Source of the DNA: Candidatus Levyibacteriota bacterium
GTDB taxonomy: Bacteria > Patescibacteriota > Microgenomatia > Levybacterales > GWA1-39-11
Direction: 5' to 3'
DNA length: 64,000 nt
Assembly (NCBI GenBank): GCA_039738415.1
Contig: JBCLLY010000006.1
Coordinates: forward strand, 1,814 to 65,813
Below, in pieces: positions 49,342-64,000 of the stretch. The notes under the pieces were generated by a model. It saw nothing but the letters and a program-made list of their open reading frames with translations. It ran no database searches and was not told the origin of the DNA. A program made the position numbers and the translations under genes. The stretch's first letter is position 1; every line of letters begins with the position of its first letter.

Positions 49342-49432
49342 TATTATATAGTACCTGAATTCAATGAAAGTATTCAAGGTTTTATACCTAAGAAAATATA
49401 ATTTAAGTTTATTATTTCGTATAATAGGGGAG

Positions 49433-49894
49433 ATGAGAAAAATTAAAAGAATTCCCGTGACCCGAGAAGGGTACGAAAAATTAGTAAAAGATTTGGTAAG
49501 TTTAAAATCTTCCCGTCCTGAGGCAGTAAATACTTTGTCAGAGGCTCGCAAAATGGGGGATTTATCGGAAAATGGACTTTATTCTGCAGCAAAGATGCGT
49601 TTGCGTGGTATTGACTCCCAAATATTAAGACTGAATATCCAAATAAAACTTGCAGACATTATAGAGGAAAATAAGAGTGGTTTTGTTTCTATTAATTCAA
49701 AAGTTCTTATTTCAGACGGAAAGAAAGAGAGAGTACTGCATATAGTTGGACAATTTGAAGCAGATCCGCTGAATAACAAAATTTCTAGCTCGTCTCCGAT
49801 AGGACGTGGCTTAATCGGAAAAAAGACAGGAGACAGAGTGGGGGTAAATATTCCTTCGGGGAGAATTACATTTGAAATCCTAAAAGTGTTTTAA
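49433..49894 (+). CDS. greA: transcription elongation factor GreA
   Basis: IPVTREGYEKLVKDL...DLSENGLYSAAK. The ATG at 49433 is preferred over the upstream in-frame start. Confidence 0.9.
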   Translation: MRKIKRIPVTREGYEKLVKDLVSLKSSRPEAVNTLSEARKMGDLSENGLYSAAKMRLRGIDSQILRLNIQIKLADIIEENKSGFVSINSKVLISDGKKERVLHIVGQFEADPLNNKISSSSPIGRGLIGKKTGDRVGVNIPSGRITFEILKVF

Positions 49895-49909
49895 TCCTAA
49901 TCACCGTCA
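49889..49909. repeat. 21-nt perfect direct repeat, copy 1 (TTTTAATCCTAATCACCGTCA), overlapping the greA stop
   Basis: Identical to 49990-50010. Confidence 0.9.
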
Positions 49910-49942
49910 AAAATTCATAATGTTTGCATTTAAGGTTAATTT

Positions 49943-49982
49943 AAGGTTCAACCTTCAATAGCCTCAAGCAAGGTTGAACCTT
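49943..49982. terminator. 13-bp-stem hairpin (AAGGTTCAACCTT / AAGGTTGAACCTT) between convergent greA and PBP1A
   Basis: Perfect complementarity with a 14-nt loop. Lies between the two 21-nt repeat copies. Confidence 0.6.
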
Positions 49983-49989
49983 AGCTATC

Positions 49990-50010
49990 TTTTAATCCTA
50001 ATCACCGTCA
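49990..50010. repeat. 21-nt perfect direct repeat, copy 2, overlapping the PBP1A stop and last codons
   Basis: Identical to 49889-49909, 101 bp away. Confidence 0.9.
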
Positions 50011-52262
50011 CCAATTCCTAAGGTAGGAGTTAGCGTGGGAGTAGGAGTTGGGGTGGGAGTCAGGATTGGAGTACTTGTAATTCCAGTTGTGGGAGTTGGT
50101 GTTTGAGGAATTTGTGTTGGACTAGGAGTATTTGTCGGTTGATTGTTGTTATCTTTTTCTTTTTCTTCAGTTTCACTTGGCGTTGGAGTAGGGGTGGGGA
50201 TATTGCAGAGTTTTTTAGGTACCGTCCCTCTTATGAAAAATTCAGTATATGCAGATGAAGTTGCAAATTCTATTTTTAACCCGTCCTCAAAACAAACTTC
50301 TTGCGCAACTACTCCGGGAGGTTGTCTGAAGTTTTCAGTAGGTTTGCCCGCAAGATACGCCTCCATTATTTGCCTCCAGATAGGAGCTGCGCCTAATGCT
50401 CCCGCGACACTTGTCATGGGAGTATTATCATTGTTTCCTATCCAGACGCCGACTGCAATTTGAGGTGTATAGCCAAGAGTAAGTGCATCGCGGTAATTTT
50501 CAGTAGTACCTGTTTTAACAGCCGCGGTTCTTGAAATATTTAGAGCTGTTCCAAATATCTCAGAGCGTATTTTATTATCAGAAAGAATTGAGCTAATAAG
50601 AAATGCCACAGTTGCTGCTATGGCTTGTTTGTTTTTAGTTTTATTACTTAAAATTGTTCTTCCATTCTTATCCATAACTTTTGTAAATAGAGAATAAGTG
50701 TTCCATTCTCCCTCATTCGCAAATGTTGCGTATACATTCGTCATCTCAATTAGAGGAACCTCCGCAGACCCCAAAACAAGCGGAAGACCATAATCTATAT
50801 CATCTTTAAGAGTTGTAATACCAAGATCTTTTGCAACCTCTATGCCTTTTTTAACTCCCAGCATATTCATAACGTGAACCGCCGGGATATTAAGAGAATT
50901 TGCTAAAGCAAAACGTACAAGAACTTTACCTCTGAAATTATTGTCATAATTTGCAGGAGTATAGTTGCCAAATGAAATTTTTTCGTCCTCAAGTTGAGTA
51001 GATGGAGTTATTAGTCTTTGCTCAAGAGCACCTGCATAAATAATAGGTTTAAAAGAAGAGCCGGGCTGGCGGGGGGCAACTGCCATATTGATTCTGCCCG
51101 TAATTTCATCATTCCAGTCATAGCTTCCAACGAGTGCGAGTACTTCGCCGGTTTTTGGGTCTATTGCGACTGCAGCACCGTTGCCTACCTTTGAACCTTT
51201 AAGTCTTTTAACTTGTGCTTTAACAGCGCTTTGAGCTGATTTTTGTAAGCTGAGGTTAAGTGTAGTTTTGACCACTAATCCGCTTCGTGCGACGTGCTGC
51301 TCTCCAAACTCCTTAATCAAAAGGTCTTGAATCATCAAGGCAAAATGTACAGCATCCTCATTTATGTCAACTGTAGTTGGGTCTAGTACTATTTCCTCCT
51401 CTTGTGCCACAATTTTTTCCTCCTCAGTTATAAAACCTTGCTCTTCCATTAATTTTAATATTAGATCCTTTCTCCCTAGCGCTGCTTCAAAATCCCCTGA
51501 AATTGGAGAGTAAAATGAAGGGGCTCTGATAATCCCCGCAAAAAGCGCGCTTTGGGCAAGAGTTAAATCCTTTGCGTCTTTAGAAAAGTATCTTTGGGAA
51601 GCATCCTGAATTCCAAAAGCCCCTTGCCCATAATAGTTTGTGTTTATATATAATTCCAAAATATCGTCTTTTGAATAACGCCTTTCAAGCTCGAGTGCGA
51701 GTACTAGCTCCTGATATTTTCTCAAAAGCCTTCTGTCCGGGGATAGAATCGCATTCTTCATGAGCTGTTGTGAGATAGTAGACCCACCCTGAATTGAGGA
51801 TTGAGAAAGAAAATTTTCACGAATCGCACGGCCAATTCCTCTTATAGAAAAACCCGGGTGGTTGTAAAAATCCCTATCTTCAACTGCAACAAAAGCTTTC
51901 CCGGCGTATTCCGGCAAGTCGTTAAGAGAAATTGAGTTTTTGCTACTACCACCAAATAGTGTAAAGAAAGGTTTATCATTTCTATCAAGTAAAACTACTC
52001 CCTGATTTTTTTTATTTAATATTCTTTCTTTTGAGGACAAATCTCTGACAAAGTAAAGATATGTAGCAATAGGAATTAAAATTATAATTACTAGAGAAAT
52101 AATTATCGCGTATTTTAGAGGCTTCCGCCCTTTTATGATAATGAGCTTTATGTCCTCCCGATTAAGATTGCGCAGCCGCAAGTACTTCTGCTTTATGTAG
52201 GGTTTGTCTATTTTCCGGATGAATTTAACTATTTCCCCAAGTTTATTTTTTATCTTATTCAT
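49998..52262 (-). CDS. bifunctional penicillin-binding protein 1A (GT51 transglycosylase plus transpeptidase) with a Pro/Thr-rich C-terminal tail
   Basis: EDRDFYNHPGF (GT51) and the SSFKP active site. The tail is PTPTPTPSETEEKEKDNNNQPTNTPSPTQIPQTPTPTTG.... Confidence 0.9.
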   Translation of the reverse strand: MNKIKNKLGEIVKFIRKIDKPYIKQKYLRLRNLNREDIKLIIIKGRKPLKYAIIISLVIIILIPIATYLYFVRDLSSKERILNKKNQGVVLLDRNDKPFFTLFGGSSKNSISLNDLPEYAGKAFVAVEDRDFYNHPGFSIRGIGRAIRENFLSQSSIQGGSTISQQLMKNAILSPDRRLLRKYQELVLALELERRYSKDDILELYINTNYYGQGAFGIQDASQRYFSKDAKDLTLAQSALFAGIIRAPSFYSPISGDFEAALGRKDLILKLMEEQGFITEEEKIVAQEEEIVLDPTTVDINEDAVHFALMIQDLLIKEFGEQHVARSGLVVKTTLNLSLQKSAQSAVKAQVKRLKGSKVGNGAAVAIDPKTGEVLALVGSYDWNDEITGRINMAVAPRQPGSSFKPIIYAGALEQRLITPSTQLEDEKISFGNYTPANYDNNFRGKVLVRFALANSLNIPAVHVMNMLGVKKGIEVAKDLGITTLKDDIDYGLPLVLGSAEVPLIEMTNVYATFANEGEWNTYSLFTKVMDKNGRTILSNKTKNKQAIAATVAFLISSILSDNKIRSEIFGTALNISRTAAVKTGTTENYRDALTLGYTPQIAVGVWIGNNDNTPMTSVAGALGAAPIWRQIMEAYLAGKPTENFRQPPGVVAQEVCFEDGLKIEFATSSAYTEFFIRGTVPKKLCNIPTPTPTPSETEEKEKDNNNQPTNTPSPTQIPQTPTPTTGITSTPILTPTPTPTPTLTPTLGIGDGD

Positions 52263-52466
52263 GAGAATGTATATTTTAACATTTTGAGCCTATTCTAGCC
52301 AAAAGTCAAATAAATTTGAATTTATTTGCAATGCTACGATTTGGCACAAAATCCTAAAGTCGGGTTGGAATGAGTTAAAAAAGAAGCCTTTTTCTATAAG
52401 TACCTATTGTCAATCTCAGCTTGCACTGAGCTTGCTCGCCTCGCTGAGTCGAAGCGGGCCAAAGTG

Positions 52467-52540
52467 TGAGCCGACTGGGACTCGAACCCAGAACCAAAAG
52501 CTTAAAAGGCTTTTGCTCTACCAAATTGAGCTATCGGCCC
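52467..52540 (-). tRNA. tRNA-Lys (TTT)
   Basis: Sense strand GGGCCGA-TA-GCTC...GAGC-A-AAAGC-CTTTTAA-GCTTT-TGGTT-CTGGG-TTCGAGT-CCCAG-TCGGCTC-A. No encoded CCA. Confidence 0.9.
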
Positions 52541-52688
52541 GCTCGCAATCGTATTAATATTGAAAATATTAGAAGAGCGTAACTGTAATTTTATCAAAAT
52601 TAGACCTCACACGCAATGAAGTTATTTGACAAAACATTTTATTTTTTTAATACTGTTTATAGTATATAACTGAAAGGAGGTGAATTAC

Positions 52689-53345
52689 ATGCAGGATATA
52701 AATAATACATTAATAACAACACTTAACAGTAGTATCGAGACAATTGTCACTTTTGCTCCTAAATTTGTCCTCGGCTTAATCTTTCTTTTAGTCGGTATTA
52801 TAATTGCCGCTTTCCTAAAACAAATTCTAAATGAACTATTTAGGTTTTTTAAGGTCGAGACTTATTTGGCAAAATATGGAGTCCCTGAATCAAAAGACGG
52901 GGCTCAGTGGAGTACGATAATTGCAGAAATAGCCAGATGGTTTGTGATTGTAGCCTTTCTTATTCCTACCGCAGATGTATGGGGGTTAGGGCGCTTTGCG
53001 TCAGTTCTAGACGGGTTGCTTTCATATTTACCAAATGTATTCGTGGCGGTGTTATTACTGCTTGTTGGTTTTGTAGTTTCTAGACTTGTTCACGATTTGG
53101 TTCTCGCTTCGGTACGTGGACTTTCGAAAGAATCTGCAAAATCTGTTGCACTTGTTGCCAGATATGCAGTAATAATATTTGTGTTGCTAGTAGTTTTAAA
53201 TCAGCTAGGAATAGCAACTGATTTAATAAGAATTTTATTTAGCGGGATAATTGCCATGCTAGCAATAGCAGGAGGACTCGCTTTCGGACTTGGTGGAAAA
53301 GATGCGGCAAAGGAAACAATAGAAAAACTCAGGAAAAGACTTTAA
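52689..53345 (+). CDS. membrane protein with repeated conserved TM-helix units (mechanosensitive-channel-associated TM_helix type)
   Basis: SD GGAGGTG lies 7 nt upstream of the ATG at 52689. Four hydrophobic helices with a repeating pattern. Family call is tentative. Confidence 0.5.
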   Translation: MQDINNTLITTLNSSIETIVTFAPKFVLGLIFLLVGIIIAAFLKQILNELFRFFKVETYLAKYGVPESKDGAQWSTIIAEIARWFVIVAFLIPTADVWGLGRFASVLDGLLSYLPNVFVAVLLLLVGFVVSRLVHDLVLASVRGLSKESAKSVALVARYAVIIFVLLVVLNQLGIATDLIRILFSGIIAMLAIAGGLAFGLGGKDAAKETIEKLRKRL

Positions 53346-53360
53346 AAATTCTTATTTTGG

Positions 53361-53400
53361 AAAACACACCTGGAATAATTTTGGGTGTGTTTTCTTTTTT
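53361..53400 (+). terminator. rho-independent terminator
   Basis: AAAACACACC-13 nt-GGTGTGTTTT followed by CTTTTTT. Confidence 0.8.
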
Positions 53401-53483
53401 AAGCTGTGGGATTGTAGAAAAGAGCTAATTTTAATATAATTGGCTAGATTTAATACTTGGATCTTAGGTCTTAAGTCTTTTTT

Positions 53484-53555
53484 GGCCCGTTCGTCTATCG
53501 GTTAGGACGCTAGACTTTCACTCTGGCAAGGGGGGTTCGACTCCCCCACGGGTCA
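53484..53555 (+). tRNA. tRNA-Glu (TTC)
   Basis: Acceptor GGCCCGT/ACGGGTC, anticodon arm CTAGA-CTTTCAC-TCTGG, T arm GGGGG-TTCGACT-CCCCC. No encoded CCA. Confidence 0.9.
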
Positions 53556-53621
53556 CATTTTAATCAAGGGGAGAAGAAGTTTACCCTGCTGTGCCCGCCT
53601 CTGCAGGGAGCTTGTGCAAGG

Positions 53622-53640
53622 GAGTCCCAGTCGGCTCACA
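53622..53640 (+). repeat. 19-nt copy of the tRNA-Lys 3' end (GAGTCCCAGTCGGCTCACA), att-like and inverted relative to the gene
   Basis: Exact reverse complement of 52465-52483 (T-loop to 3' end of tRNA-Lys plus 2 nt). Marks the left edge of the accessory region. Confidence 0.8.
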
Positions 53641-53711
53641 AATAGGGTTTTGGAGGTTGGATTTCAGAAGCAGATATACAAACTGACTGGCAGGAATGTA
53701 AAAAATGGAAT

Positions 53712-53891
53712 ATGGAAACAGAATCTTTACTTTTAACTGGGATTCCCGGTAAAGAGGGTATAAAAATGACGGAGGAGCAGATGGGCTATTTGAATGATTG
53801 GGATGTATGGCTTGAGGAAATGTGTATTCAGTTAGAGAAAGATAAGTCTCATATTGTAAATGAGTTTGATAGAAGGCAATTTGAAAAATAG
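53712..53891 (+). CDS. small hypothetical protein (59 aa)
   Basis: ORF METESLLLTGIPGKEG...RRQFEK, just below the track cutoff. Followed by a same-length ORF that also starts ME.ES. No SD. Confidence 0.3.
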   Translation: METESLLLTGIPGKEGIKMTEEQMGYLNDWDVWLEEMCIQLEKDKSHIVNEFDRRQFEK

Positions 53892-53897
53892 AGAAAT

Positions 53898-54077
53898 ATG
53901 GAAAGAGAATCTAAAATAACATACGAACAAATAAGTGATAGTGTGCCTATGCTTGCAGAACAAGCCTATCATTTGCATGAAGAAATTGACCTAGACGTTG
54001 AACTTAAAAGAAGGAAAGAACAAGAGGCTTGGGAACGTAGACAATATGGAAATGATATATGTGACTTCCTAATTTAA
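53898..54077 (+). CDS. small hypothetical protein (59 aa)
   Basis: ORF MERESKITYEQISDS...DICDFLI. Its last ~45 bp are duplicated in degenerate form at about 54071-54118. Confidence 0.3.
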   Translation: MERESKITYEQISDSVPMLAEQAYHLHEEIDLDVELKRRKEQEAWERRQYGNDICDFLI

Positions 54078-54434
54078 AAGAAGGAAAGATTATGCGATTT
54101 GGGAGCGTAGACAGTATTAAAAGTGATGCTTTGACTGTACTGTAGGTTCTTTAAAGCCGTCGGAAATCCCGACAAACTGAATTTTCATCCAATTCTCCCT
54201 CCAAAGGCGGGTAGACAAGAACCTTGGAATGAACCATAAATTTGCAAGTTGGCTGTAGATTAATTACTTAAATCCCAATTAATCAAGGTATTTTAAAAGA
54301 CTTAGAGAACAGCGGTGGGCTCAAATACCGCGCCGCATCTAGACATGCTTGGCTTATACGCGAGGGAATATGCCCAGTCTGATTAATTCTTCTTTTCTGA
54401 ATCCTTCCGTGAAATTTGGAGTTACTAAGGATTG

Positions 54435-55073
54435 ATGCATTCTGGCACGGTTTGTATTGCTTTTGGTTCAAATGAGGGTATAATTTCACTTATGGTCGAA
54501 AATTCTATTCATGAAAAAGCAATGCTCCTTATAAATGGGGAGCAAAGTGAGTTTGTAAGTAAAATTGAGGAAATTATTGCAATTTCTAACCTTGTTGGCA
54601 AACAAACTGAAATGGGAAATTGCGTAATGCAATCATTTCTATTAGGTGAACTTTGCTTAAAGCCTGATGTTGCAAAACAGCTCTATCCCGATCTTGGCTT
54701 AGACCAAGCATTGAAAAATACAGGATCCGTGCGTACTAACTTTAACAGTAGAGTTAAGCCACATGGACTTAAAATTGGTCAAGAACATTCTCCGACTACA
54801 TATTTTTATGAACTAATTGAACCAGCGGATAAAGTTAAAAAGAAAATTAGAGAAAAGCCTACGGAACATATACTTTCAATGCAAATGATCGCAGGAGTAA
54901 GTGTTCCACTAATTAGGGACCATAACCATCATTGGGTAATAGCCGAAGCAAACGGGCCAGTTTCTGATGGTAGATGTAAGGGTTGTGGAGAACACCGTGT
55001 ATACCGAAATTCGCTATCTGAGGAACAAATAAATCCCAACAGGAATTTCAATAGGCATTCCCGTCGAGACTAA
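54435..55073 (+). CDS. hypothetical protein with a C-terminal CxxC motif
   Basis: Long ORF. Start is uncertain (ATG at 54435 or 54492). The C-terminus DGRCKGCGEHRVY carries a single CxxC. No family recognised. Confidence 0.45.
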   Translation: MHSGTVCIAFGSNEGIISLMVENSIHEKAMLLINGEQSEFVSKIEEIIAISNLVGKQTEMGNCVMQSFLLGELCLKPDVAKQLYPDLGLDQALKNTGSVRTNFNSRVKPHGLKIGQEHSPTTYFYELIEPADKVKKKIREKPTEHILSMQMIAGVSVPLIRDHNHHWVIAEANGPVSDGRCKGCGEHRVYRNSLSEEQINPNRNFNRHSRRD

Positions 55074-55080
55074 AGGATTT

Positions 55081-55140
55081 TACCTTAAATAGTGCACCTT
55101 ACCCTTGTCAAAAGAGGGGAACAGTCCCCTTATTTGAGTA
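55081..55140 (+). repeat. intergenic repeat family T, copy 1 (27-nt core TACCTTAAATAGTGCACCTTACCCTTG plus hairpin AGGGGA-ACAG-TCCCCT and a T-rich tail)
   Basis: The core is identical to 56972-56998. The second half is similar to 57024-57053. Terminator-like hairpin at 55115-55130. Confidence 0.8.
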
Positions 55141-55286
55141 GCATATCGACTCCATCTTCATTCCTCGCTTAAGGAAATGAATTTAGTGATAAAATTGCAG
55201 ATGTGAGGACTTATCAATCCTCTGGTGAAATTTACCCATTCGGTATTCTAAATATTCAAGATTATTGAATATAAACTAACATACGT

Positions 55287-55796
55287 ATGCAAATAAAATT
55301 AAAAAGACCAACTCTTCCGACTCTATTATTAATTCTAGTTGTCTGTGTCCTTGCGATAATTTCCATATTTCTTTTTGCTGCTAATAAAAAAAATGGGGAT
55401 TGGAAGACTTACATCAATTACCGTTTCAATTATTCAATTAGCTACCCAAAAGATTGGAAAGAAGGCAGAGTAGCAACAAATGGCGACGGTAGAGCATTAT
55501 ATAAAGACAATTCTAATGAAATCTTAGTTTACGCAAGCTATATGCTTTGGTCCTTTTCTCAGCAAGATGCTCCAATTGAACGTAATATATTTACTACAAC
55601 TAGTGGAATAAGAGCAACATCTCTTAAAGAAACGAAGAATGGAAAAGTTAAATATATTGTATTTTTTACACTGAAAAATAAAAAGGATAATAACTTAGAA
55701 ACTCAATACGTTTTTAATGTAAATGTAACTGAAAAGTTTTTTAAAGCTAATGAACAAATTATTATTAAAGTTGCTAAAAGTCTCTCGCTTAATTAA
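55287..55796 (+). CDS. membrane-anchored hypothetical protein
   Basis: N-terminal TM (LPTLLLILVVCVLAIISIFLF) followed by a soluble domain beginning WKTYINYRFNYSISYPKDW. Confidence 0.5.
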   Translation: MQIKLKRPTLPTLLLILVVCVLAIISIFLFAANKKNGDWKTYINYRFNYSISYPKDWKEGRVATNGDGRALYKDNSNEILVYASYMLWSFSQQDAPIERNIFTTTSGIRATSLKETKNGKVKYIVFFTLKNKKDNNLETQYVFNVNVTEKFFKANEQIIIKVAKSLSLN

Positions 55797-55918
55797 TGGA
55801 AATAGATTGTAAACCTGCTTTGACTTAAATAAATAAAATTATAGAAAAAATTATTAAGAGAGTTAAACATGCATATTGCTTTATATATCAAGTGGATTTA
55901 TATATATAATAAAGCTAA

Positions 55919-56824
55919 ATGAGATCAAAAAAACATATTCTTATTATTGTACTGCTTGGACTATTAGTTGTTGCCGGATACCTTATTATTTCAAGAAACA
56001 AACCCTCCAAAATAGTTAAAACTACTCCCCCAATTACTGAAAGTAAATTTGAAGATGTTAAAGCCGATCTGAATGGTGATGGAAATCAGGAGACGCTTCG
56101 CTTGTCGTATACCAACTCAGAAAGGGAACCTGTTGTATCCCTAATTGCTTTAGATAAAAATGGAAAGGAAATAGGCAAGCTTCCAACAAGTATGCCAATT
56201 AAGGTACCTATGCCTAAAAGTGGAAAAGTACACACCCCTGTTAAAAAAGACAAAAATCAATTTGTAAGTTTTGATTTTTCCGTAGGTCCCCATTCTTCTG
56301 AAACAATGTTTTTTGGTCTTTTTCAACTTAAGACTGGTGGTATGGGAGTTTTACCTATATGTCTTACCGACAATGTAAATGGAGCCTCAGATTGCCTATT
56401 TTGGTCAGGAGAGGTTGGAGAACTAGCTGCTAAAGACTTAGACAATGATGGAAACTTAGAAGTTATAGAAATAGTTGATGAATATCCTAAAGATGGTCAA
56501 ATAACTACTGACACAGAAAAGATAATTAATGATGAATTTAAAGATATGGGTCAAGATGCGGTAAGTGGAATGACTAGAATTGCTAAACGCGAGCAGGGCG
56601 ATAGGGGCAATAAGGTTGTTTGGGGAATATATAAATTTAATGGAGAATATTTCAAAGAGCAGACAGGTAAAAATTACGATAGATACTATGACTTGGTAAG
56701 TAAGCACTTGAAGGCAACATATCCCAACTACCCGACAATAATGAAAAGGAATAGTATGAGCAAAGATTCTTTAGACTACAACTTGTCTATGCGACAGTTT
56801 TGGACCCATAGCGGCGGAAATTAG
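55919..56824 (+). CDS. membrane-anchored or secreted hypothetical protein with DxDxDG-type Ca-binding-like motifs
   Basis: N-terminal TM, then DLNGDGNQE and DLDNDGNLEV motifs (FG-GAP/EF-hand-like). Confidence 0.5.
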   Translation: MRSKKHILIIVLLGLLVVAGYLIISRNKPSKIVKTTPPITESKFEDVKADLNGDGNQETLRLSYTNSEREPVVSLIALDKNGKEIGKLPTSMPIKVPMPKSGKVHTPVKKDKNQFVSFDFSVGPHSSETMFFGLFQLKTGGMGVLPICLTDNVNGASDCLFWSGEVGELAAKDLDNDGNLEVIEIVDEYPKDGQITTDTEKIINDEFKDMGQDAVSGMTRIAKREQGDRGNKVVWGIYKFNGEYFKEQTGKNYDRYYDLVSKHLKATYPNYPTIMKRNSMSKDSLDYNLSMRQFWTHSGGN

Positions 56825-56971
56825 ACAACAATCGTAATAACTCAAGAATACCTGATAGCTTCACTTTTTTACTCACAAAAATTACTGCTTTAATTTTCAC
56901 TAGAAGCTCAAATGATTCGCAGAATCTTAAACTTTACCCCAAATACTCCTTGACTTACCTCAAACACTCCT

Positions 56972-57053
56972 TACCTTAAATAGTGCACCTTACCCTTGCA
57001 CTTCGGAGATCTCAGTGTAAACAAAAAGAGGGGCGCAGTCCTTTATGTGAGTA
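56972..57053 (+). repeat. intergenic repeat family T, copy 2 (with a 24-nt internal insertion)
   Basis: 27-nt core identical to copy 1. The tail AAAAGAGGGGCGCAGTCCTTTATGTGAGTA is a degenerate version. Confidence 0.8.
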
Positions 57054-57166
57054 CTTTTGTTCGTTTATTCGAACAATTGGTATAGAAAAGCTATTAATCT
57101 AATGGTTCGATATATTAGAACAATTGTTTTAGGTTTCTAGTTTTAAGTTTTACGTTTATTCTCCAG

Positions 57167-57341
57167 CCTCAGGAGAATACATTTTATTCTATCGTTTGAA
57201 TGGATGGTTTTGTTTAGTCTAATGTTTCGATACATTAGACTGGGTGTTTGAATTTATTTGGGAGTAGAGGTGAGGCCTCTATTCAGTTTATCTCAGGATT
57301 TGGGTTTCATTGGTGAAAAGGTCTCACCTCTACACGGTAAT
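57167..57341 (+). repeat. 175-bp direct repeat R, copy 1 (two internal hairpins)
   Basis: 169 of 175 positions identical to 60428-60602. Hairpin 1 at 57216-57241 (10-bp perfect stem AGTCTAATGT/ACATTAGACT, loop TTCGAT). Hairpin 2 at 57264-57333 (14-bp stem GTAGAGGTGAGGCC/GGTCTCACCTCTAC). Confidence 0.9.
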
Positions 57342-57359
57342 TTGTATTATAATTTTTAT

Positions 57360-57581
57360 ATGCCGATTATATTTTCTGATCACGCAAAACAGCAGTTGAG
57401 AAGAAGGAAAATACCCCAAAAATTAGTAATTGAAACAATTAAAAACTTTGAGGGTAAAGGCGCAAGTTTTAAGGAGCGTAAGTTGCGGCAAAAGACGTTT
57501 GGTGATAAAATATTGGAGGTGGTAACAAAGACCGAAGGATCAAAAGTAACGGTTATTACAGGTTACTATATTAATAAATAA
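57360..57581 (+). CDS. DUF4258-like protein (putative toxin of a two-gene TA-like pair)
   Basis: MPIIFSDHAKQQLRRRKIP... The ATG at 57360 sits 6 nt after TATAAT (57348-57353). The longer track ORF reads through repeat R. Confidence 0.6.
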   Translation: MPIIFSDHAKQQLRRRKIPQKLVIETIKNFEGKGASFKERKLRQKTFGDKILEVVTKTEGSKVTVITGYYINK

Positions 57582-57583
57582 TT

Positions 57584-57784
57584 ATGAAAATGAGATACGA
57601 TAAAAAAGTAGATGCAGTCTACATTGAATTGGCAAAAGGCTTATATGATAGTTCGCGCAAAGTGTCTGATGTGATTGTGGTGGATGAAGATAAAAAGGGA
57701 AAAGTTTTGGGAATAGAAATTTTGGATGCCTCTAAAAATATTAATGCATTTGACCCAAAATCTATATCTGTAGCTACCTCCTAG
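57584..57784 (+). CDS. DUF2283-like protein (putative antitoxin partner)
   Basis: YDKKVDAVYIELAKG...GKVLGIEILDASKNI pattern. Starts 2 nt after the upstream stop. Confidence 0.6.
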   Translation: MKMRYDKKVDAVYIELAKGLYDSSRKVSDVIVVDEDKKGKVLGIEILDASKNINAFDPKSISVATS

Positions 57785-57827
57785 TTTTTTTATTCAAGCC
57801 TTAATTTGTAACGAATACAATCTCAAC

Positions 57828-57887
57828 AAAATTCGCATCCCAGCCTTGACTAGACCGCCGAGTCTAGGCGGGCCAGCTACAGGAAAG
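57828..57887 (+). repeat. junction repeat J, copy 1
   Basis: AAAATTCGCATCCCAGCC-TTGACTAGACCGCCGAGTCTAGGCGGGCCAGCT-ACAGGAAAG. Confidence 0.85.
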
Positions 57888-57935
57888 TATATCTAGTATT
57901 CAATATGAGCGTGCGAGTGTAGTGGTTGCACAGAT

Positions 57936-57959
57936 GTATGATATATCGATATATCATAC
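57936..57959. promoter_or_regulatory. 24-nt perfect palindrome GTATGATATATCGATATATCATAC
   Basis: Exactly self-complementary. Intergenic, about 160 bp upstream of the KilA-N gene. Operator-like. Confidence 0.5.
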
Positions 57960-58067
57960 AGACAAGATGGGTAAATGGGGGGAAGTGAAACTCTTTTACG
58001 TAGAGGTTTTACTTTTATATAAACATAACACGCTGAGGGTTGATGACTAAATTCTAAAAATAGTAAT

Positions 58068-58204
58068 CCAGCCTCAGGAGTGATAATATAAATAAATCAG
58101 ACAAAGCCTTTTAAATTATGAAAAGTAAAAAAATAGAAGTGAAAGGAATTGTAATTGCCACATTTAGCAAAAACGAAAAAGACTATATTTCCCTGACTGA
58201 TATG
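58068..58204 (+). repeat. 137-nt exact duplication, copy 1 (KilA-N upstream region plus first 29 codons)
   Basis: Identical to 62098-62234. Confidence 0.9.
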
Positions 58205-58945
58205 GCAAAGTTTAAATCCTATGATAGTGGAATAGTCATTGCTAATTGGCTGTCAACAAAATACACAATTCAGTTTATGGGAGCTTGGGAACAATTACAT
58301 AATCCGAATTTTAATCTTATTGAATTCCATAAGATTAAAAGTGAAGCTGGATCAAATGGATTTATTGTTTCATCCTCATTTTGGATCAAACAAACTAAGG
58401 CAATTGGAATTATCTCAAGTGCAGGTAGATATGGGGGAACTTATGCCCATAAAGATATTGCTTTTGAGTTTGCAACCTGGCTTTCTCCAGAGTTCAAACT
58501 TTTTCTTATTAAAGAATTCCAAAGACTTAAGGCAGAAGAAAGTGAGCGGCTTGAATTGGGTTGGGATTTGAAAAGAACATTGGCAAAAATTAATTACCGT
58601 ATTCACACAGATGCGATTAAAGAGCATCTCATCCCACCAAAAATTTCTCAAAAATCAACTCAAATCATTTACGCCACTGAGGCAGATGTATTAAATGTAG
58701 CTTTGTTTGGAATAACAGCAAGAATATGGCGTGATCAAAATCCAAAAAGGGAGGGGAACATCCGAGACTATTCTACTGTAGAGCAACTGGTAGTACTCTC
58801 AAACCTTGAAGGAATGAATGCGGAATTTATCCGACAAGGACTATCTCAAAGCGCGCGACTAGTAAGACTTAATATAAATGCAATTTCTCAAATGAAGTCA
58901 CTTCTTGGAAACCCAGCGGTGAAAAAGTTAGAAAAACAAAAATAG
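58118..58945 (+). CDS. KilA-N domain-containing protein
   Basis: ISLTDMAKF...GRYGGTYAHKDIAFEFATWLSPEFKLFLIKEFQRLK, typical of the KilA-N family often found near restriction-modification loci. Confidence 0.8.
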   Translation: MKSKKIEVKGIVIATFSKNEKDYISLTDMAKFKSYDSGIVIANWLSTKYTIQFMGAWEQLHNPNFNLIEFHKIKSEAGSNGFIVSSSFWIKQTKAIGIISSAGRYGGTYAHKDIAFEFATWLSPEFKLFLIKEFQRLKAEESERLELGWDLKRTLAKINYRIHTDAIKEHLIPPKISQKSTQIIYATEADVLNVALFGITARIWRDQNPKREGNIRDYSTVEQLVVLSNLEGMNAEFIRQGLSQSARLVRLNINAISQMKSLLGNPAVKKLEKQK

Positions 58946-58948
58946 TAT

Positions 58949-58997
58949 CTCAGCCTCGACTAGACCGCCGAGTCTAGGCGGGCCAGCCACCGGAAAC
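58949..58997 (+). repeat. junction repeat J, copy 2
   Basis: CTCAGCC-TCGACTAGACCGCCGAGTCTAGGCGGGCCAGCC-ACCGGAAAC. Begins 4 nt after the KilA-N stop. Confidence 0.85.
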
Positions 58998-59006
58998 AGT
59001 TTTAAT

Positions 59007-59042
59007 ACGGAGAAGGTGTACCCCCAAATCACGGAGAAGGTG
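59007..59042 (+). promoter_or_regulatory. 12-nt perfect direct repeat ACGGAGAAGGTG x2 (24-nt period) upstream of a promoter
   Basis: Copies at 59007-59018 and 59031-59042. Possible regulator-binding sites. Confidence 0.4.
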
Positions 59043-59065
59043 AAATATCCGTCTTATACAAAGTG

Positions 59066-59093
59066 TTGAAATAATCTTAACTCATAGTATAAT
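59066..59093 (+). promoter_or_regulatory. sigma70-type promoter TTGAAA-N16-TATAAT driving a leaderless transcript of the 231-aa ORF
   Basis: -35 at 59066-59071, -10 at 59088-59093. The ATG at 59099 is 5 nt after the -10 hexamer. Confidence 0.6.
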
Positions 59094-59098
59094 GCGGT

Positions 59099-59794
59099 AT
59101 GAGTAATTTTAGAGAGGAAATGGACAAAGCAAGAAGGGCTGCTGAAGAAGCAAGTAGAAATAATCAAAAAAAAGTTGAAAAGTCAGAGTTGGATGTCAAT
59201 TCATGGGGATATCTCTGGAAAAAAAAGGAATTGCAAAAAGACTATCAGGGGATATATATAGAAAATGTTATAGTGCCAGTCATAGCAGAGGTGAGGCAAG
59301 TTTTAAACGAACAAAGAAAGGGAGATGAATGGTCAAGCAAAAGAGTGCAAGACCATGTTGACTTTAGAATCAACTGGCCAGGGGGTGACGGTGCTGAAGG
59401 GGCTGACCCACATACACAACACTATCATGAAATATTTGATGGCGTATTACTTACACAAGTACAAAAAACTGGACTGTTACGTAGACCAGTTGTACTACAA
59501 ATATTTTCCGGCTTTACTCAAGATGTACGGGAAGGCAGTGATATTTCACATACCGTTTTAATTAGGGCTGCATTAAGTTCTGATAGAAATAGATGTGCTG
59601 TTGAGCTAGGACAAAATCCAATTGATAGCAGTTATTATTGGATTCCGGGAAATAATGCTTGGATTCATCAAGTAGAACATAGTATTGAAAATATAATATC
59701 ACCATCCTCAGAAGTGGCTTCTAATGAGATGAGTAGACTACGTTCTCATCTTTCATCCATTGTTGTTTCTCTCCAAGGAAAAGGAAATATGTAG
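59099..59794 (+). CDS. hypothetical protein (231 aa), no recognised family
   Basis: Long ORF with a charged coiled-coil-like N-terminus. Locally more GC-rich than its surroundings. Confidence 0.5.
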   Translation: MSNFREEMDKARRAAEEASRNNQKKVEKSELDVNSWGYLWKKKELQKDYQGIYIENVIVPVIAEVRQVLNEQRKGDEWSSKRVQDHVDFRINWPGGDGAEGADPHTQHYHEIFDGVLLTQVQKTGLLRRPVVLQIFSGFTQDVREGSDISHTVLIRAALSSDRNRCAVELGQNPIDSSYYWIPGNNAWIHQVEHSIENIISPSSEVASNEMSRLRSHLSSIVVSLQGKGNM

Positions 59795-59812
59795 ATGGAG
59801 TATGTATAAATG

Positions 59813-59870
59813 AATTCGCATACCAGCCTCGACTAGACCGTCGAGTCTAGGCGGGCCAGCCACCGGAAAT
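59813..59870 (+). repeat. junction repeat J, copy 3
   Basis: AATTCGCATACCAGCC-TCGACTAGACCGTCGAGTCTAGGCGGGCCAGCC-ACCGGAAAT. Confidence 0.85.
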
Positions 59871-60061
59871 TTGTCCAGTTTGATCTAGTTGTTAATAGTT
59901 GACACTACAAATATAGTGGTTTAACATAATTTTGGATACTACATAGCAGCGGAATAGGAGAAGGAGATATGGGAAGAGTTTTTACATTTGAAATCACAGC
60001 ACCAAGGACGCACAAAAGCGACGGAGGTGTTTTTTTGTGGTTATTCTTATGAAAGGAGGTG

Positions 60062-60337
60062 ATGAAAATGAAAGAAAAAAAACAAAGTCAGGAAGTCCAA
60101 ATTAATTTCGATTTTGGTGCAGAACCAATTTTGTATACTGACTCAATTTTTATTACATCAAATGAAGATGGAATAATTATTAACTTCAGTCAACCTCAAG
60201 CCATTCCTACACAACAGAAAGTTGTAGCAAGAATAGGTATGAGTCGGGAACATGCCAAAAAGTTCATTCAAAAAATTAGCAATTTATTTGCTATTACTGA
60301 AAATAATAAGCAAATTGGTCAAAAGTCCCAGAATTAA
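60062..60337 (+). CDS. DUF3467-like protein
   Basis: ILYTDSIFITSNEDGIIINFSQ...KVVARIGMSREHAKKFIQKISNL resembles the DUF3467 pattern. SD AAAGGAGGTG upstream. Confidence 0.55.
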   Translation: MKMKEKKQSQEVQINFDFGAEPILYTDSIFITSNEDGIIINFSQPQAIPTQQKVVARIGMSREHAKKFIQKISNLFAITENNKQIGQKSQN

Positions 60338-60342
60338 CCTAG

Positions 60343-60370
60343 AGCCGGCTGGGAGAAATCCCACTCGGCT
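60343..60370 (+). other. hairpin AGCCG-gct-GGGA-GAAA-TCCC-act-CGGCT with a GNRA tetraloop
   Basis: Follows the DUF3467 stop. Its 5' arm contains GGCTGGGA, the reverse complement of the junction-motif core TCCCAGCC. Confidence 0.6.
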
Positions 60371-60427
60371 TGCTCCATTTCTGATCATAACAAAAAAATA
60401 AGGAAATTAAAATAATTAGGAAACTGA

Positions 60428-60602
60428 CCTCAAGAGAATACATTTTATTCAATCGTTTGAATGGATGGTTTTGTTTAGTCTAATGTTTCGATACATTAGA
60501 CTGGGTGTTTGAATTTATTTAGGAGTAGAGGCGAGACCACTATTCAGTTTATCTCAGGATTTGGGTTTCATTGGTGAAAAGGTCTCACCTCTACACGGTA
60601 AT
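60428..60602 (+). repeat. 175-bp direct repeat R, copy 2
   Basis: Six mismatches relative to 57167-57341. Same orientation, same length. Confidence 0.9.
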
Positions 60603-60644
60603 ATAGTGCTATGTGGATGGCCGAGGTTTTGGTTTCTTTAGATT

Positions 60645-61502
60645 TTAACTCCAGCTTTCCCCAAGATATTGAACAAGTAATTCGCGCAGTCGTTCTCCGC
60701 CAATAAGTTCAACATTGTTAACTTTCGCTAGCTGAATGGCTTCTGGAGTGAAATATGAGGTAGTAACAACCATAGCGCGCGTGCAATTATAAAGTTTTAA
60801 TGCAGTACTAGCTTCTTGCACCGCAGAATTACCAACGGATCCTGTATAGCACTTTGCTTGCACAACAACCCTTTCTGAGCCCATATTCACAACTAAATCA
60901 CAACCCTGATCACCAGTTTTACCTGTTTTCATAGCAGAGTATCCCATCGCTTCATATAATTTACATAAAAGAACTTCAAATTCAGTACCCGTTAATTGGC
61001 TAGTTGTATGAGGTATGCTTGCGATGCTGTCGCGGACAAATTTATCCTCTTTATTATAAATGTAATGCTTAAGTAGCAAGCTAATATCTTTATAGTCGTC
61101 CATAGAGAGTTTGACACCTTTGTCATGTAGCGCTTTTCTGAAGATTTCTAGCTGCTGCCATGTGAACGAGAACTCTCCGTCTTTCCATAAATCTTTTCCT
61201 GCCTTTTTTTGATAGCCAAGACTGTTTATAAAGTTTTTTATATTTTCATCAGCTCCAGCTTGTTTAACTGAATCAAGCAAATCTGATATTTTCTTCTTTT
61301 GTCTCTTTGATTGAAAATCATGCCATGCATAAATTCCAATCACTATGAGAACAAGTGCTATTGCGCCACCCCAAAGCAAGACAAAAAAAAGGGAGTTATT
61401 GGTTTTAAAAAGAGATACTAAATAAAAAGTAGCCAATACAAAAATAAAAAATATTATTTTTGCTAATGTGTAATCATTATTCCTATATCTCCCTCGAGCC
61501 AT
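60645..61502 (-). CDS. membrane-anchored restriction endonuclease-like protein (Mrr_cat-type PD-(D/E)xK domain)
   Basis: The ATG at 61500-61502 (MARGRYRNNDY) is preferred. Two N-terminal TM helices. C-terminus FEVLLCKLYEAMGY...GDQGCDLVV...VVQAKCY... Confidence 0.7.
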   Translation of the reverse strand: MARGRYRNNDYTLAKIIFFIFVLATFYLVSLFKTNNSLFFVLLWGGAIALVLIVIGIYAWHDFQSKRQKKKISDLLDSVKQAGADENIKNFINSLGYQKKAGKDLWKDGEFSFTWQQLEIFRKALHDKGVKLSMDDYKDISLLLKHYIYNKEDKFVRDSIASIPHTTSQLTGTEFEVLLCKLYEAMGYSAMKTGKTGDQGCDLVVNMGSERVVVQAKCYTGSVGNSAVQEASTALKLYNCTRAMVVTTSYFTPEAIQLAKVNNVELIGGERLRELLVQYLGESWS

Positions 61503-61646
61503 ATAATAATAGTAGCACATTTTTCTTAAGGACTGAAAGGAGCAATTAACAAAATTAAATGGGAATTCGCAAAATTCGCATCCCAGAATCAGGAGTGGTA
61601 GAATAGAGTTCATCGAATTAATGTTTAATAAGAAAATTAAAAATAT

Positions 61647-62090
61647 ATGGAAAAAATCAATCTATTCGACCTAAAAACACTACTCAAGGGAAGGGATTGG
61701 GCAGACTTGACGAAGCAGGAACGGTTGGAAATCTCCCAAAAAATATTAGACCTGATTTCACAGGATTAGCCAAGTTTGTAAACGAAAATCCTCAAGGATT
61801 TACTATCAACATAAATGGAGTACCAGCCACTAAGGGTTTTGTGGTATCACCTTACAAGGGTAGGGAAACTATTCTTGAAATAGTAGATGAGAATTCTATC
61901 AGAGATTTTATATCAAAAAACATAGATTTATTACAACAAGAAGGTAATTTTTTTGGAGGATGGAAAAATTCAAAGGGAAAATTCTAGATATTATGGAAGG
62001 GCAGGTAAAATATTATCCCAACGGGAAAATTTTTGATACCAATGACCCTAACCACAACAGAAGCTTGGAAATTTTAATTAGAAGCAAAAT
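61647..62090 (+). pseudogene. fragmented gene: three consecutive ORF pieces in different frames
   Basis: Pieces are MEKINLFDLKTLLKGRDWADLTKQERLEISQKILDLISQD*, then ...FVNENPQGFTININGVPATKGFVVSPYKGRE...FFGGWKNSKGKF*, then MEGQVKYYPNGKIFDTNDPNHN.... Consistent with frameshift and nonsense decay. Confidence 0.35.
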
Positions 62091-62097
62091 TCGCATC

Positions 62098-62234
62098 CCA
62101 GCCTCAGGAGTGATAATATAAATAAATCAGACAAAGCCTTTTAAATTATGAAAAGTAAAAAAATAGAAGTGAAAGGAATTGTAATTGCCACATTTAGCAA
62201 AAACGAAAAAGACTATATTTCCCTGACTGATATG
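62098..62234 (+). repeat. 137-nt exact duplication, copy 2
   Basis: Identical to 58068-58204. Confidence 0.9.
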
Positions 62235-62490
62235 CTGCGGGCTAAAGATGGTGATTTCTTTATTTCTGATTGGTTGAGAAATAGGAATACAGTTGAATTC
62301 ATTGGTATATGGGAAAAGTTGAATAATCCGAATTTTAATTATGGCGAATTTGCCATAATTAAAAGTCAGGTAGGATTAAACAGCTACAAGATTAGTGTTA
62401 AAGAGTGGGTCGTGTAATACTTAATCTTACACAATCTCTCAAATGAAGTCACTTATCGGGAACCCAGCAGTGAAAAAGTTAGAAAACCGG
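62148..62490 (+). pseudogene. KilA-N gene remnant (mosaic with an internal deletion)
   Basis: The first 29 codons are identical to the 58118 copy. These are followed by a divergent KilA-N N-domain (WLRNRNTVEFIGIWEKLNNPNF), a premature stop at 62415-62417, then the out-of-frame C-terminal tail (QMKSLIGNPAVKKLE). Confidence 0.7.
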
Positions 62491-62548
62491 AATTCGTAAT
62501 CCAGCCTCGACTAGACCGTCGAGTCTAGGCGGGCCAGCCTCAGGAAAG
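62491..62548 (+). repeat. junction repeat J, copy 4
   Basis: AATTCGTAATCCAGCC-TCGACTAGACCGTCGAGTCTAGGCGGGCCAGCC-TCAGGAAAG. Lies immediately upstream of hsdR. Confidence 0.85.
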
Positions 62549-62582
62549 TGGAATTTAAGTTCAAGAAGTGGTAGAATAAATC

Positions 62583-64000
62583 ATGATATTTAACGAAAAC
62601 ACTAGGGTAAAGATTCCTGCATTGATTCATTTGACACGACTTGGCTATCTTTATTTTTCATTGAAAGATCAAAATTACGAAGTCGATCCAGACACAAATA
62701 TTATTACGAACGTACTAACTAGAAAGATCAAAGAACTTAATCCTGATGCTACGGATGAATCTGTTATCCAAGAATTGCAGAATATTAAAGAAGAACTAAA
62801 TTATGATGATTTAGGAAGAGCGTTTTATAAGCGTTTAATTGGAGATGGGGATGGGAGCCTAAAACTTATAGAGTGGGATAAGTTTGGTAATAATTTGTTT
62901 CATGTGACTTCAGAGTTAACGTGCAAGAGTGGGGAAGATGAATTCCGGCCCGATATTACAATCTTTATTAATGGACTACCCCTCTCATTTATAGAGGTAA
63001 AGAAGCCCAATAACCCAGAAGGTATTAAGGCTGAGCGAGATCGTATAAATGTTCGTTTCAAAAATGACAAATTTCGACGATTTATCAATGCCACACAGCT
63101 GATTGTTTTCTCCAATAACATGGAATACGACGATACCGACACTAACAAACTTCAAGGTGCATTTTATGCAACCACTGCAAAAAACACGGATACAAAATTT
63201 AACAACTTACGTGAGCAAAAAAGGTCTGAATTTATAGATGAGATTAAAGCCATAGATGAGCGTATAGAGGATTTTATTCTCTTAGATAATAACTGCAGGA
63301 TTATTAAGCATTCTCCTGAATTCTTGTCTAACAAAGATATAGACACCCCGACCAATCGAATTTTATCGTCGTTGTTTAGTATGTTCAGGCTAAGAGATCT
63401 GCTTAAATATGGGATCTGTTATGTCGACGAAGTTGAGGAAAATACAGGCAAAGTAACTATAGAAAAACAAGTCATGAGGTATCCTCAGTTTTTTGCCACC
63501 AAAGCAATTAAGACTAAGCTTGACGAAGGTATGAAAAGGGGTGTGATTTGGCACACTCAGGGTTCAGGTAAAACAGCTTTATCCTTTTACAACGTTCATT
63601 CACTTAAAGATTATTTTGCCAAAAATGGAGTGATTCCTAAGTTCTATTTTGTAGTTGATCGTCTTGATCTTGCTACACAAGCAAAAGAAGAATTTAGCAA
63701 GCGTGGAATGACAACAAATACTATTGATAGCAAGGAAGCATTACTTGAAGACTTTAAAAATAATACCTCAACGGAAGGTATTACTGTTTTAAATATCCAC
63801 AAATTTCGAGAAGATACTATGGCACTTGATGACAGTGGATACAATATAAATTTACAACGCATATTCTTCATTGACGAAGCTCATCGTAGTTATGATCCAA
63901 AGGGTTCTTTCTTGGCAAATCTTTACAGCTCAGACAAAAATTCCATAAAAATAGCTCTTACAGGCACACCACTAATTATCTATAAAGATCATGATGATCG
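62583..64000 (+). CDS. hsdR: type I restriction enzyme R subunit (N-terminal part, continues beyond window)
   Basis: Not in the ORF track because there is no stop within the window. Nuclease motif FRPDITIFINGLPLSFIEVKKP, helicase Walker A WHTQGSGKT and DEAH box FIDEAHRS. Confidence 0.9.
   Translation, partial: MIFNENTRVKIPALIHLTRLGYLYFSLKDQNYEVDPDTNIITNVLTRKIKELNPDATDESVIQELQNIKEELNYDDLGRAFYKRLIGDGDGSLKLIEWDKFGNNLFHVTSELTCKSGEDEFRPDITIFINGLPLSFIEVKKPNNPEGIKAERDRINVRFKNDKFRRFINATQLIVFSNNMEYDDTDTNKLQGAFYATTAKNTDTKFNNLREQKRSEFIDEIKAIDERIEDFILLDNNCRIIKHSPEFLSNKDIDTPTNRILSSLFSMFRLRDLLKYGICYVDEVEENTGKVTIEKQVMRYPQFFATKAIKTKLDEGMKRGVIWHTQGSGKTALSFYNVHSLKDYFAKNGVIPKFYFVVDRLDLATQAKEEFSKRGMTTNTIDSKEALLEDFKNNTSTEGITVLNIHKFREDTMALDDSGYNINLQRIFFIDEAHRSYDPKGSFLANLYSSDKNSIKIALTGTPLIIYKDHDD

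Follow-up and report, generated by a model that had tools for sequence, protein, structure and literature searches.

A probable defence-type accessory island with repeated module junctions in a Candidatus Levyibacteriota bacterium

Introduction

At the end of a 64,000-nucleotide (nt) stretch of DNA from a Candidatus Levyibacteriota bacterium (GenBank assembly GCA_039738415.1, contig JBCLLY010000006.1, positions 1,814 to 65,813 of the forward strand; here called the window), nuclease, toxin-antitoxin (TA) and restriction-modification (RM) genes lie among orphan genes and gene fragments. This locus raises the question of what kind of region it is and whether its orphans include a new anti-phage system. 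A sequence-only reading had described it as a defence-type accessory region, and had picked a 231-amino-acid (aa) open reading frame (ORF) and the DUF3467 gene downstream of it as the best candidate for an unrecognised functional unit. On balance, the region, which starts near 53.6 kb and extends to 64 kb or further, appears to be a chromosomal, strain-variable, defence-type accessory island of a low-GC, presumably groundwater bacterium, made of separately promoted modules that were probably reshuffled at shared junction repeats. The repeats were absent from the sequence-only reading and were detected by repeat analysis.

Gene content was tested by profile scans with Pfam, NCBIfam, PADLOC and PHROGs, and coding potential was assessed with a codon-usage score trained on the long ORFs of the window.

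Gene content and boundaries of the island

The island contains recognisable defence genes next to a tRNA gene and housekeeping genes. Domain matches show that predicted DNA-degrading defence components are present, namely HsdR of a type I RM system and a nuclease with an Mrr_cat domain. The start of hsdR, the membrane-anchored Mrr nuclease, the DUF4258/DUF2283 pair and the intact and mosaic KilA-N genes had all been named in the sequence-only reading, and all were confirmed with Pfam and PADLOC. The recognisable genes and gene remnants are as follows.

62583..64000, + strand: hsdR, N-terminal 472 aa (Pfam HSDR_N, SWI2_SNF2 and ResIII; PADLOC REase_I)
60645-61613, minus strand: membrane-anchored Mrr_cat nuclease (Pfam Mrr_cat, PADLOC nuclease-domain matches, transmembrane (TM) segments)
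58118-58945, + strand: intact KilA-N gene, 275 aa (Pfam KilA-N, E 6.9e-20; PADLOC PDC-S22, E 8.5e-127)
62148-62417, + strand: truncated mosaic KilA-N copy (PDC-S22 N-terminus, E 9.2e-34)
57360-57581, + strand: DUF4258 gene, 73 aa (Pfam, E 8.6e-08, 32.8 bits, cutoff 25)
57584-57784, + strand: DUF2283 gene (Pfam, E 1.7e-14, 54.2 bits, cutoff 23)
60059/60068-60337, + strand: DUF3467-like gene, about 89-92 aa (Pfam DUF3467, PF11950, E 3.8e-4)
61647-62121, + strand: frameshifted gene remnant (overlapping ORFs of 40, 96 and 53 aa in three frames)

The hsdR gene has the domain order expected of HsdR, an N-terminal HSDR_N nuclease domain (E 5.4e-27 in Pfam) followed by a superfamily 2 (SF2) motor (SWI2_SNF2, E 7e-31; ResIII, E 2.8e-24). 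Its promoter, TGGTAGAAT, sits 5 nt ahead of the ATG. The Mrr protein shares with the Mrr-family type IV restriction endonucleases (REases) a C-terminal Mrr_cat PD-(D/E)xK domain (PF04471, E 3.4e-30, residues 206-313). It differs from them at the N-terminus, where two TM helices replace the DNA-binding domain of canonical Mrr; the Pfam scan gave no match to the Mrr_N winged-helix DNA-binding domain. The PADLOC matches of this protein (mREase_IV, PDC-S02 and ZorD) cover the nuclease domain only. The gene probably starts at M38, at 61502, because the first 37 codons of the ORF overlap a promoter-like repeat.

The intact KilA-N protein matches PDC-S22 over its whole length (residues 1-274 against profile positions 1-276 of 281) and also matches phrog_2657 (E 3.9e-53). 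Relatives with 55-61% identity are found on plasmids of Bacteroidota and Gammaproteobacteria, where they adjoin serine recombinases, Tn3 transposases and a Qat system. Their presence on plasmids of other phyla suggests that the gene has been widely transferred horizontally. The PDC families are 145 untested candidates defined by their embedding in BREX, DISARM or type I RM loci (bioRxiv 10.1101/2024.01.29.577857). In the island hsdR begins 84 nt past the end of the truncated copy and 3.6 kb downstream of the intact one, a placement that fits the PDC embedding pattern.

DUF4258 and DUF2283 are co-directional, separated by 2 nt and both above the Pfam gathering score; they form a predicted TA-like pair. 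The likely true start of the DUF4258 gene, 57360, comes from the gene calls in a sister assembly, GCA_039731645.1. The downstream DUF3467 gene of the sequence-only reading is present, but its match is below the Pfam gathering threshold (20.9 versus 25 bits), and it is called DUF3467-like only.

Modules of one or two genes follow one another along the island; each is separately promoted, and several have leaderless geometry. First come the small acidic paralogues, the 213-aa orphan, two anchored surface proteins and the TA-like pair. These are followed by KilA-N/PDC-S22, the 231-aa orphan, the DUF3467-like protein and the Mrr-family nuclease with two TM segments, and then by the frameshifted remnant, the recombinant truncated KilA-N copy and hsdR. 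Every ORF of the island has a positive coding score in its own frame and a negative score out of frame, so the orphans look like genuine coding sequences.

Ordinary chromosomal genes fill the window up to about 53.4 kb. They include genes for BipA, IleRS, DnaE, PolX, CTP synthase, GatB and an ATP synthase subunit and, closer to the island, RuvCAB, a P-type ATPase, GreA, the penicillin-binding protein (PBP) PBP1 and an MscS-like protein. Two tRNA genes lie near the boundary.

53484..53556, + strand: tRNA-Glu (TTC), at the boundary between housekeeping genes and island (ARAGORN; Rfam, 53.9 bits)
52466-52540, minus strand: tRNA-Lys

The position of the island, which begins 80 nt past tRNA-Glu, bears on an alternative origin. 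The region could be the decayed remnant of a single integrative mobile element, such as a prophage or integrative island, that entered at tRNA-Glu and whose integrase and far end lie beyond the window. KilA-N genes are typical of phages and plasmids, the homologues of this one lie beside serine recombinases and Tn3 elements, and elements of this kind often carry TA pairs and decayed genes. The gene content and composition point the other way. The part of the island inside the window contains no integrase, phage structural or replication genes, the PHROGs matches being limited to KilA-N and a few marginal ones; the 3' end of the tRNA has no duplicate within the window; and GC (guanine plus cytosine) content and codon scores differ module by module and are not uniform along the island. 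An origin from one such element is unlikely.

Junction repeats between the modules

The modules of the proposed accessory island are joined by reiterated repeats, which are confined to 55-62.5 kb, are all on the + strand and are all intergenic.

57825-57886, 58935-58996, 59808-59869 and 62486-62547, + strand: junction repeat D2, four copies, 84-89% mutual identity
58054-58090, 61569-61605 and 62084-62120, + strand: promoter-like unit D6, without insert (repeat analysis, alignment)
57167-57341 and 60428-60602, + strand: structured 175-nt repeat D1, copies 97% identical
55080-55107 and 56971-56998, + strand: perfect 28-nt direct repeat D9, with similarity continuing past the repeat

The best copies of D6 resemble promoters of the sigma-70 type, TTCGCA-N18-TGnTAnAAT, with CCAGCCTCAGGAG in the spacer. 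In the copy at 58054, CCAGCCTCAGGAG is followed by the extended -10 element TGATAATAT, and the hexamer at the -35 position is degenerate. The three copies precede KilA-N, the frameshifted remnant and the truncated KilA-N copy, respectively. Alignment shows that D2 is D6 interrupted by a palindromic, GC-rich insert of exactly 33 nt with CCAGCC at its bounds. Such an insert would widen the spacer of the promoter, 18 nt in D6, to 51 nt.

D2 copies are found directly 3' of four modules (the TA pair, KilA-N, the 231-aa gene and the KilA-N remnant), one at each. The third copy parts the 231-aa gene from the next module, and the fourth is upstream of the hsdR promoter. A role of D2 as an intrinsic terminator was rejected: a T-tract is missing, terminator prediction did not flag the repeat on the + strand, and its folding z scores are only -0.55 to -1.13. 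D2 was also rejected as a known RNA, as it has no Rfam match; a search of D1, D2 and D6 with Rfam 15 found only the tRNA, even at E <= 5.

D1 is strongly structured, with a predicted RNA fold of -60.3 kcal/mol (z = -4.63 versus shuffled controls), two long hairpins and a terminator-like hairpin. Its first copy is upstream of the DUF4258 gene and its second is between two convergent genes. It could be a miniature inverted-repeat transposable element (MITE)-like element, a bidirectional terminator module or a small RNA.

The palindromic core of D2

The central part of D2 is a GC-rich, palindromic core of 34 nt, CCAGCCTCGACTAGACCGTCGAGTCTAGGCGGGC, which can fold into a perfect stem of 6 bp or an imperfect hairpin of about 12 bp with a 6-nt loop. 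Sequence collections were scanned for the exact inner 24-mer. One match was found in 185,579 species-representative genomes, in a metagenome-assembled genome of Candidatus Doudnabacteria, and five metagenome contigs, mostly from groundwater, also contain it; there was none among viral contigs. The literature searched had no matches to the core sequence or to the assembly accession.

57848-57877, 58958-58987, 59831-59860 and 62509-62538, + strand: core copies in the window, within D2
L001:675-698, L006:8087-8110, L007:916-939, L008:2132-2155, L009:1368-1391 and L010:3606-3629: core copies elsewhere, by inner 24-mer scan

The conserved block reaches 34 nt in all six outside contigs; the flanks are unrelated, and the contigs range from 33 to 50% in GC content. 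As 23 specified bases are not expected by chance at the scale scanned, the copies of the core are homologous. Exact matches were required by the scans, and this ascertainment accounts in part for how invariant the inner 24-mer is. In each outside contig the core is present in a single copy, and the contexts are not related to defence: between an ftsL-like gene and ftsI, upstream of hsp20, beside a GIY-YIG gene and in a divergent intergenic region. On L006 and L010, which are homologous contigs, the core falls within an ATP-grasp ORF of cyanophycin-synthetase-like type, in its N-terminal region; it is in frame there and contributes the 11 residues PPRLDGLV(K/E)AG. Alignments of this ORF with PDB homologues start past the core segment.

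Four D2 copies in the same orientation, each directly 3' of a module, could also be site-specific recombination sites, with imperfect inverted arms of about 13 nt around a 6-nt centre; on this reading a tyrosine recombinase encoded elsewhere would move the modules, and the island would work as a cassette array. This arm-spacer-arm layout is present in the sequence, and the core is common to six unrelated contigs that differ in GC content. Integron arrays and the pdif modules of Acinetobacter similarly have short same-strand palindromic repeats 3' of successive single-gene modules, and TA genes and orphans are typical cargo of integrons and pdif modules. However, no recombinase gene is found in the 10 kb examined. 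No ORF between 52.7 and 64 kb and no gene annotated between 44 and 58 kb of the sister assembly has a recombinase domain, and no IntI or Xer gene is nearby. In alignments D2 has neither the R''/R' (RYYYAAC ... GTTRRRY) motifs of attC core sites nor a XerC/D-like consensus. In further contrast to integron and pdif arrays, the modules have their own promoters, and the core elsewhere is not at cassette borders, being single-copy in housekeeping contexts that include the inside of the ATP-grasp ORF. No alternative cassette arrangement was observed, and a cassette array is improbable.

The core also shares features with repetitive extragenic palindromic (REP) and MITE-like repeats and with the Rickettsia palindromic elements (RPEs). 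Like them it is a short, GC-rich, imperfect palindrome, seen here as a 33-nt insert against the 'empty' D6 sites. RPEs sit in frame inside genes, as the core does in the ATP-grasp ORF of two contigs, but the core is much shorter and its copy number per genome is apparently very low. In contrast to REP and MITE-like repeats, it is nearly invariant across distant genomes, and no transposase of the REP-associated tyrosine transposase (RAYT) type was seen. The core is regarded as a miniature palindromic element, and a REP/MITE-like nature is more likely than that of a recombinase site.

Probable recombination and strain variation

The mosaic KilA-N copy combines sequence of two kinds. It is 100% identical to the intact gene from -50 to +87 of the start codon, and then identity abruptly falls to about 65%. 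About 560 nt are deleted, and the sequence resumes with the last 55 nt or so and D2 at 86% identity. This 3'-end remnant was located by alignment to the intact copy.

62432-62499, + strand: remnant of the 3' end of the second KilA-N copy

In the sister assembly, contig JBCLLX010000012.1 (L002) is 99.94% identical to positions 44435-58463 of the window (14 kb) and stops inside KilA-N. All eight differences fall within 58108-58198, which is the block that is 100% identical between the two KilA-N copies of the window. The proteins encoded upstream of the end of the sister contig are recorded on two contigs and those downstream on one. The decaying genes of the sequence-only reading are found in the frameshifted remnant and the recombinant KilA-N copy, and the sister assembly breaks in the island. 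The KilA-N pattern fits recent gene conversion together with strain-level variation.

Homologous recombination or gene conversion between shared junctions would allow modules to be duplicated, converted, deleted or swapped, and the mosaic KilA-N copy would be the clearest product of this process. The 137-nt perfect KilA-N repeat raises the alternative that the arrangement downstream of about 58.2 kb is partly an assembly artefact, a mis-join or collapse. The sister contig ends at 58463, its differences cluster in the repeat and the genes beyond are on a single contig, but the second copy has a divergent body of its own, its flanks run smoothly into hsdR, and there are differences among the D2 and D6 copies, which collapsed repeats would not show. 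An artefact is improbable.

The 231-aa orphan and its homologue

The 231-aa protein is a real, soluble, stand-alone member of a two-member family.

59099-59794, + strand: 231-aa orphan gene, leaderless, with a positive coding score in frame
59066-59093, + strand: its promoter, TTGAAA-16-TATAAT, 5 nt ahead of the ATG
59007 and 59031 (59007..59042), + strand: tandem 12-mer ACGGAGAAGGTG, two copies with 24-nt spacing, upstream of the promoter
59899-59927, + strand: promoter of the DUF3467-like gene, TTGACA-17-TAACAT, separate from that of the 231-aa gene

The canonical leaderless promoter that the sequence-only reading had assigned to this ORF holds up, being the best match of the region (11 of 12 positions), and so does the tandem site: ACGGAGAAGGTG occurs exactly twice, and two matches were reached in 1 of 100 shuffles. 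The higher local GC content claimed for the ORF is marginal. Its neighbours are low in GC, but its value of 0.38 equals that of the 213-aa ORF and the MscS gene, and the PBP gene has 0.40.

The 213-aa and 231-aa orphans and the 59-aa pair were indeed without a recognisable family. The 231-aa protein has no match at E <= 0.1 in Pfam, NCBIfam, PADLOC or PHROGs, and a word-index search of 5.8 billion proteins returned only the protein itself. A full HMMER search of 1.84 billion representatives gave one true homologue, P0005, of 238 aa, the only one in a total of about 15 billion proteins. The two proteins align end to end (E 2.9e-13), are about 28-30% identical by one aligner or another, and share the N-terminus MSNF[KR]E and the motifs HT-x-H-x2-EIFDG and C-x-VELG. 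A second candidate, P0006, was discarded, as it is a Thr/Ser/Ala-rich tandem repeat protein that was matched in six stretches. A profile built from the alignment of the 231-aa protein and P0005 found no further members among the 5.8 billion proteins, and viral contigs contain no relatives of the 231-aa protein. A sequence-profile search of the PDB gave nothing below E 0.24. AlphaFold2 models are of low confidence (predicted local distance difference test, pLDDT, 36 and 49.8); the prediction has a long N-terminal helix and then a beta-rich domain, and Foldseek with the better model returned nothing usable.

Six metagenomic contigs carry P0005, all of them representing a single locus (L003-L005). 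A gene for an HKD+Snf2 helicase lies 1.6 kb downstream of P0005 and is followed by a type IIG REase-methyltransferase, a cyclase of the cyclic-oligonucleotide-based anti-phage signalling system (CBASS) with a 2TM effector, and a PDDEXK protein. The sole homologue of the 231-aa gene is thus in another defence island. The 231-aa protein is probably a single-gene, defence-associated factor. None of the neighbours of P0005 resembles any gene of the window by blastp.

The promoter of P0005 has a geometry like that of the 231-aa gene (TTGACT-17-TATAAT, 6 nt, ATG). A -10 box only 5-6 nt ahead of the ATG was seen in hsdR (62565-62585), the 231-aa gene (59088-59101) and the homologue (L003:9988-10003). 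The DUF3467-like gene has a long leader and a strong Shine-Dalgarno sequence, and together with the leaderless geometry of hsdR and the 231-aa gene this suggests that both initiation modes coexist in the genome.

The motif CCAGCCTCAG, part of the junction repeats, has exactly four copies in the 64 kb, all inside the island, and two more in the 20.7-kb P0005 locus, which belongs to an unrelated metagenomic genome. Both of these are intergenic: one upstream of P0005 (L003:9952-9961) and one upstream of the HKD-Snf2 gene (L003:12258-12330). The latter site is a threefold CTCGCA...CCTCA unit that ends in TGCTAGAAT and is promoter-like. CCAGCCTCAG may be a promoter or operator type shared by accessory genes. 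An nhmmer profile found no degenerate copies of D2 in the P0005 locus. This locus also has intergenic repeats of its own with 77-86% identity (L003:5705-5812 versus 8089-8188, and 8930-8985 versus 9548-9603). Repeated junctions may be a general feature of such genomes.

The idea that the 231-aa and DUF3467-like genes are one two-gene anti-phage system, controlled via the tandem 12-mer, is very improbable: the genes are adjacent, on the same strand and in a defence island, and the 12-mer is real, but the 264-nt gap between them holds a D2 copy and a second promoter, the DUF3467 match is sub-threshold, and the sole homologue has neither a DUF3467-like partner nor the ACGGAGAAGGTG tandem site upstream, so the proposed unit is not supported.

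Other orphans and the surface-protein genes

The remaining modules of the island are the small acidic ORFs, the 213-aa orphan and a pair of surface-protein genes.

54432..55073, + strand: 213-aa orphan, annotated as 212 aa from the ATG at 54435
53712-53891 and 53898-54077, + strand: two 59-aa ORFs, soluble and acidic
54071-54122, + strand: decayed copy of the 3' end of the second 59-aa ORF (repeat D7, 79% identity)
55287-55796, + strand: 169-aa gene with an N-terminal membrane anchor
55919-56824, + strand: 301-aa gene with an N-terminal membrane anchor and FG-GAP-like DxDxDG repeats
55080..56998, + strand: low-GC (0.25-0.31) segment of two genes, flanked by the 28-nt direct repeat D9

The 213-aa protein is soluble and has a C-terminal HNHHW...CKGCG stretch. 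Its coding score is +0.25 in frame and negative out of frame. It has no match at E <= 0.1 in Pfam, NCBIfam, PADLOC or PHROGs, no relatives in viral contigs and only itself among 5.8 billion proteins.

The 59-aa ORFs are weak paralogues of each other (E 0.16) and form singleton clusters, each found in both assemblies. Neither has a match at E <= 0.1 in Pfam, NCBIfam or PADLOC, and PHROGs gave only a marginal match for the second (E 0.079). Directly past the stop codon of the second, the decayed duplicate encodes FKRRKDYAIWERRQY followed by a stop. Both ORFs and the decayed third copy terminate in [ED]RRQ[YF], and together they look like a small, tandemly duplicating gene family. The 169-aa and 301-aa proteins have only weak matches to FG-GAP and PsbP in Pfam, and the low-GC segment that encodes them looks like an inserted two-gene module.

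Conclusions

The island resembles the defence islands around type I RM systems from which the PDC families were defined by 'guilt-by-embedding' (bioRxiv 10.1101/2024.01.29.577857). KilA-N/PDC-S22 copies directly precede hsdR, with a type IV-like nuclease and a TA pair nearby and uncharacterised genes interspersed. It differs in that all of its proteins are singletons at 90% identity, because the lineage is heavily under-sampled, and in having surface-protein and small acidic modules.

Several points weigh against a defence island reshuffled at its junctions. The window ends inside hsdR, with hsdM and hsdS beyond it, so only part of the RM system is visible. PDC-S22 is a candidate whose anti-phage activity is predicted, the surface-protein genes and small acidic ORFs have no link to defence, and no orphan protein matched any family of assigned function. 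The co-location of the 231-aa family with defence genes rests on two loci only, and at one of them a secreted beta-helix protein and a small TnsA-like PD-(D/E)xK protein intervene between P0005 and the defence cluster. Recombination at the junction repeats is inferred from one mosaic gene and one assembly break, and the 137-nt perfect repeat could have caused a mis-join in the assembly. That the orphans are hidden anti-phage systems is a guess, based on these two loci for the 231-aa family and on none for the 213-aa ORF.

In an accessory island of this type, KilA-N and the TA pair would be candidates for accessory defence or stabilisation, and the orphans would be lineage-specific cargo. A bolder proposal is that the core is a new miniature mobile or recombinogenic element that inserts at CCAGCC, splits promoters and shuffles defence modules in ultra-small bacteria, and that the 231-aa family is in parallel a new single-gene defence protein; this combination is tentative and has a low, though not negligible, probability.

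The island itself is of a fairly ordinary kind, and with the 231-aa/DUF3467 system removed two leads are left. One is the two-member family of 231 and 238 aa, which was found only in defence neighbourhoods, and the other is the conserved 34-nt palindromic element at the module junctions. The practical value of the analysis lies in a short, specific list of genes and sequences and in having set aside the unsupported two-gene hypothesis. Bacteria of this poorly sampled type rarely carry clustered regularly interspaced short palindromic repeats (CRISPR) and are believed to depend on RM-type defences, which makes islands such as this one a reasonable place to look for new systems.

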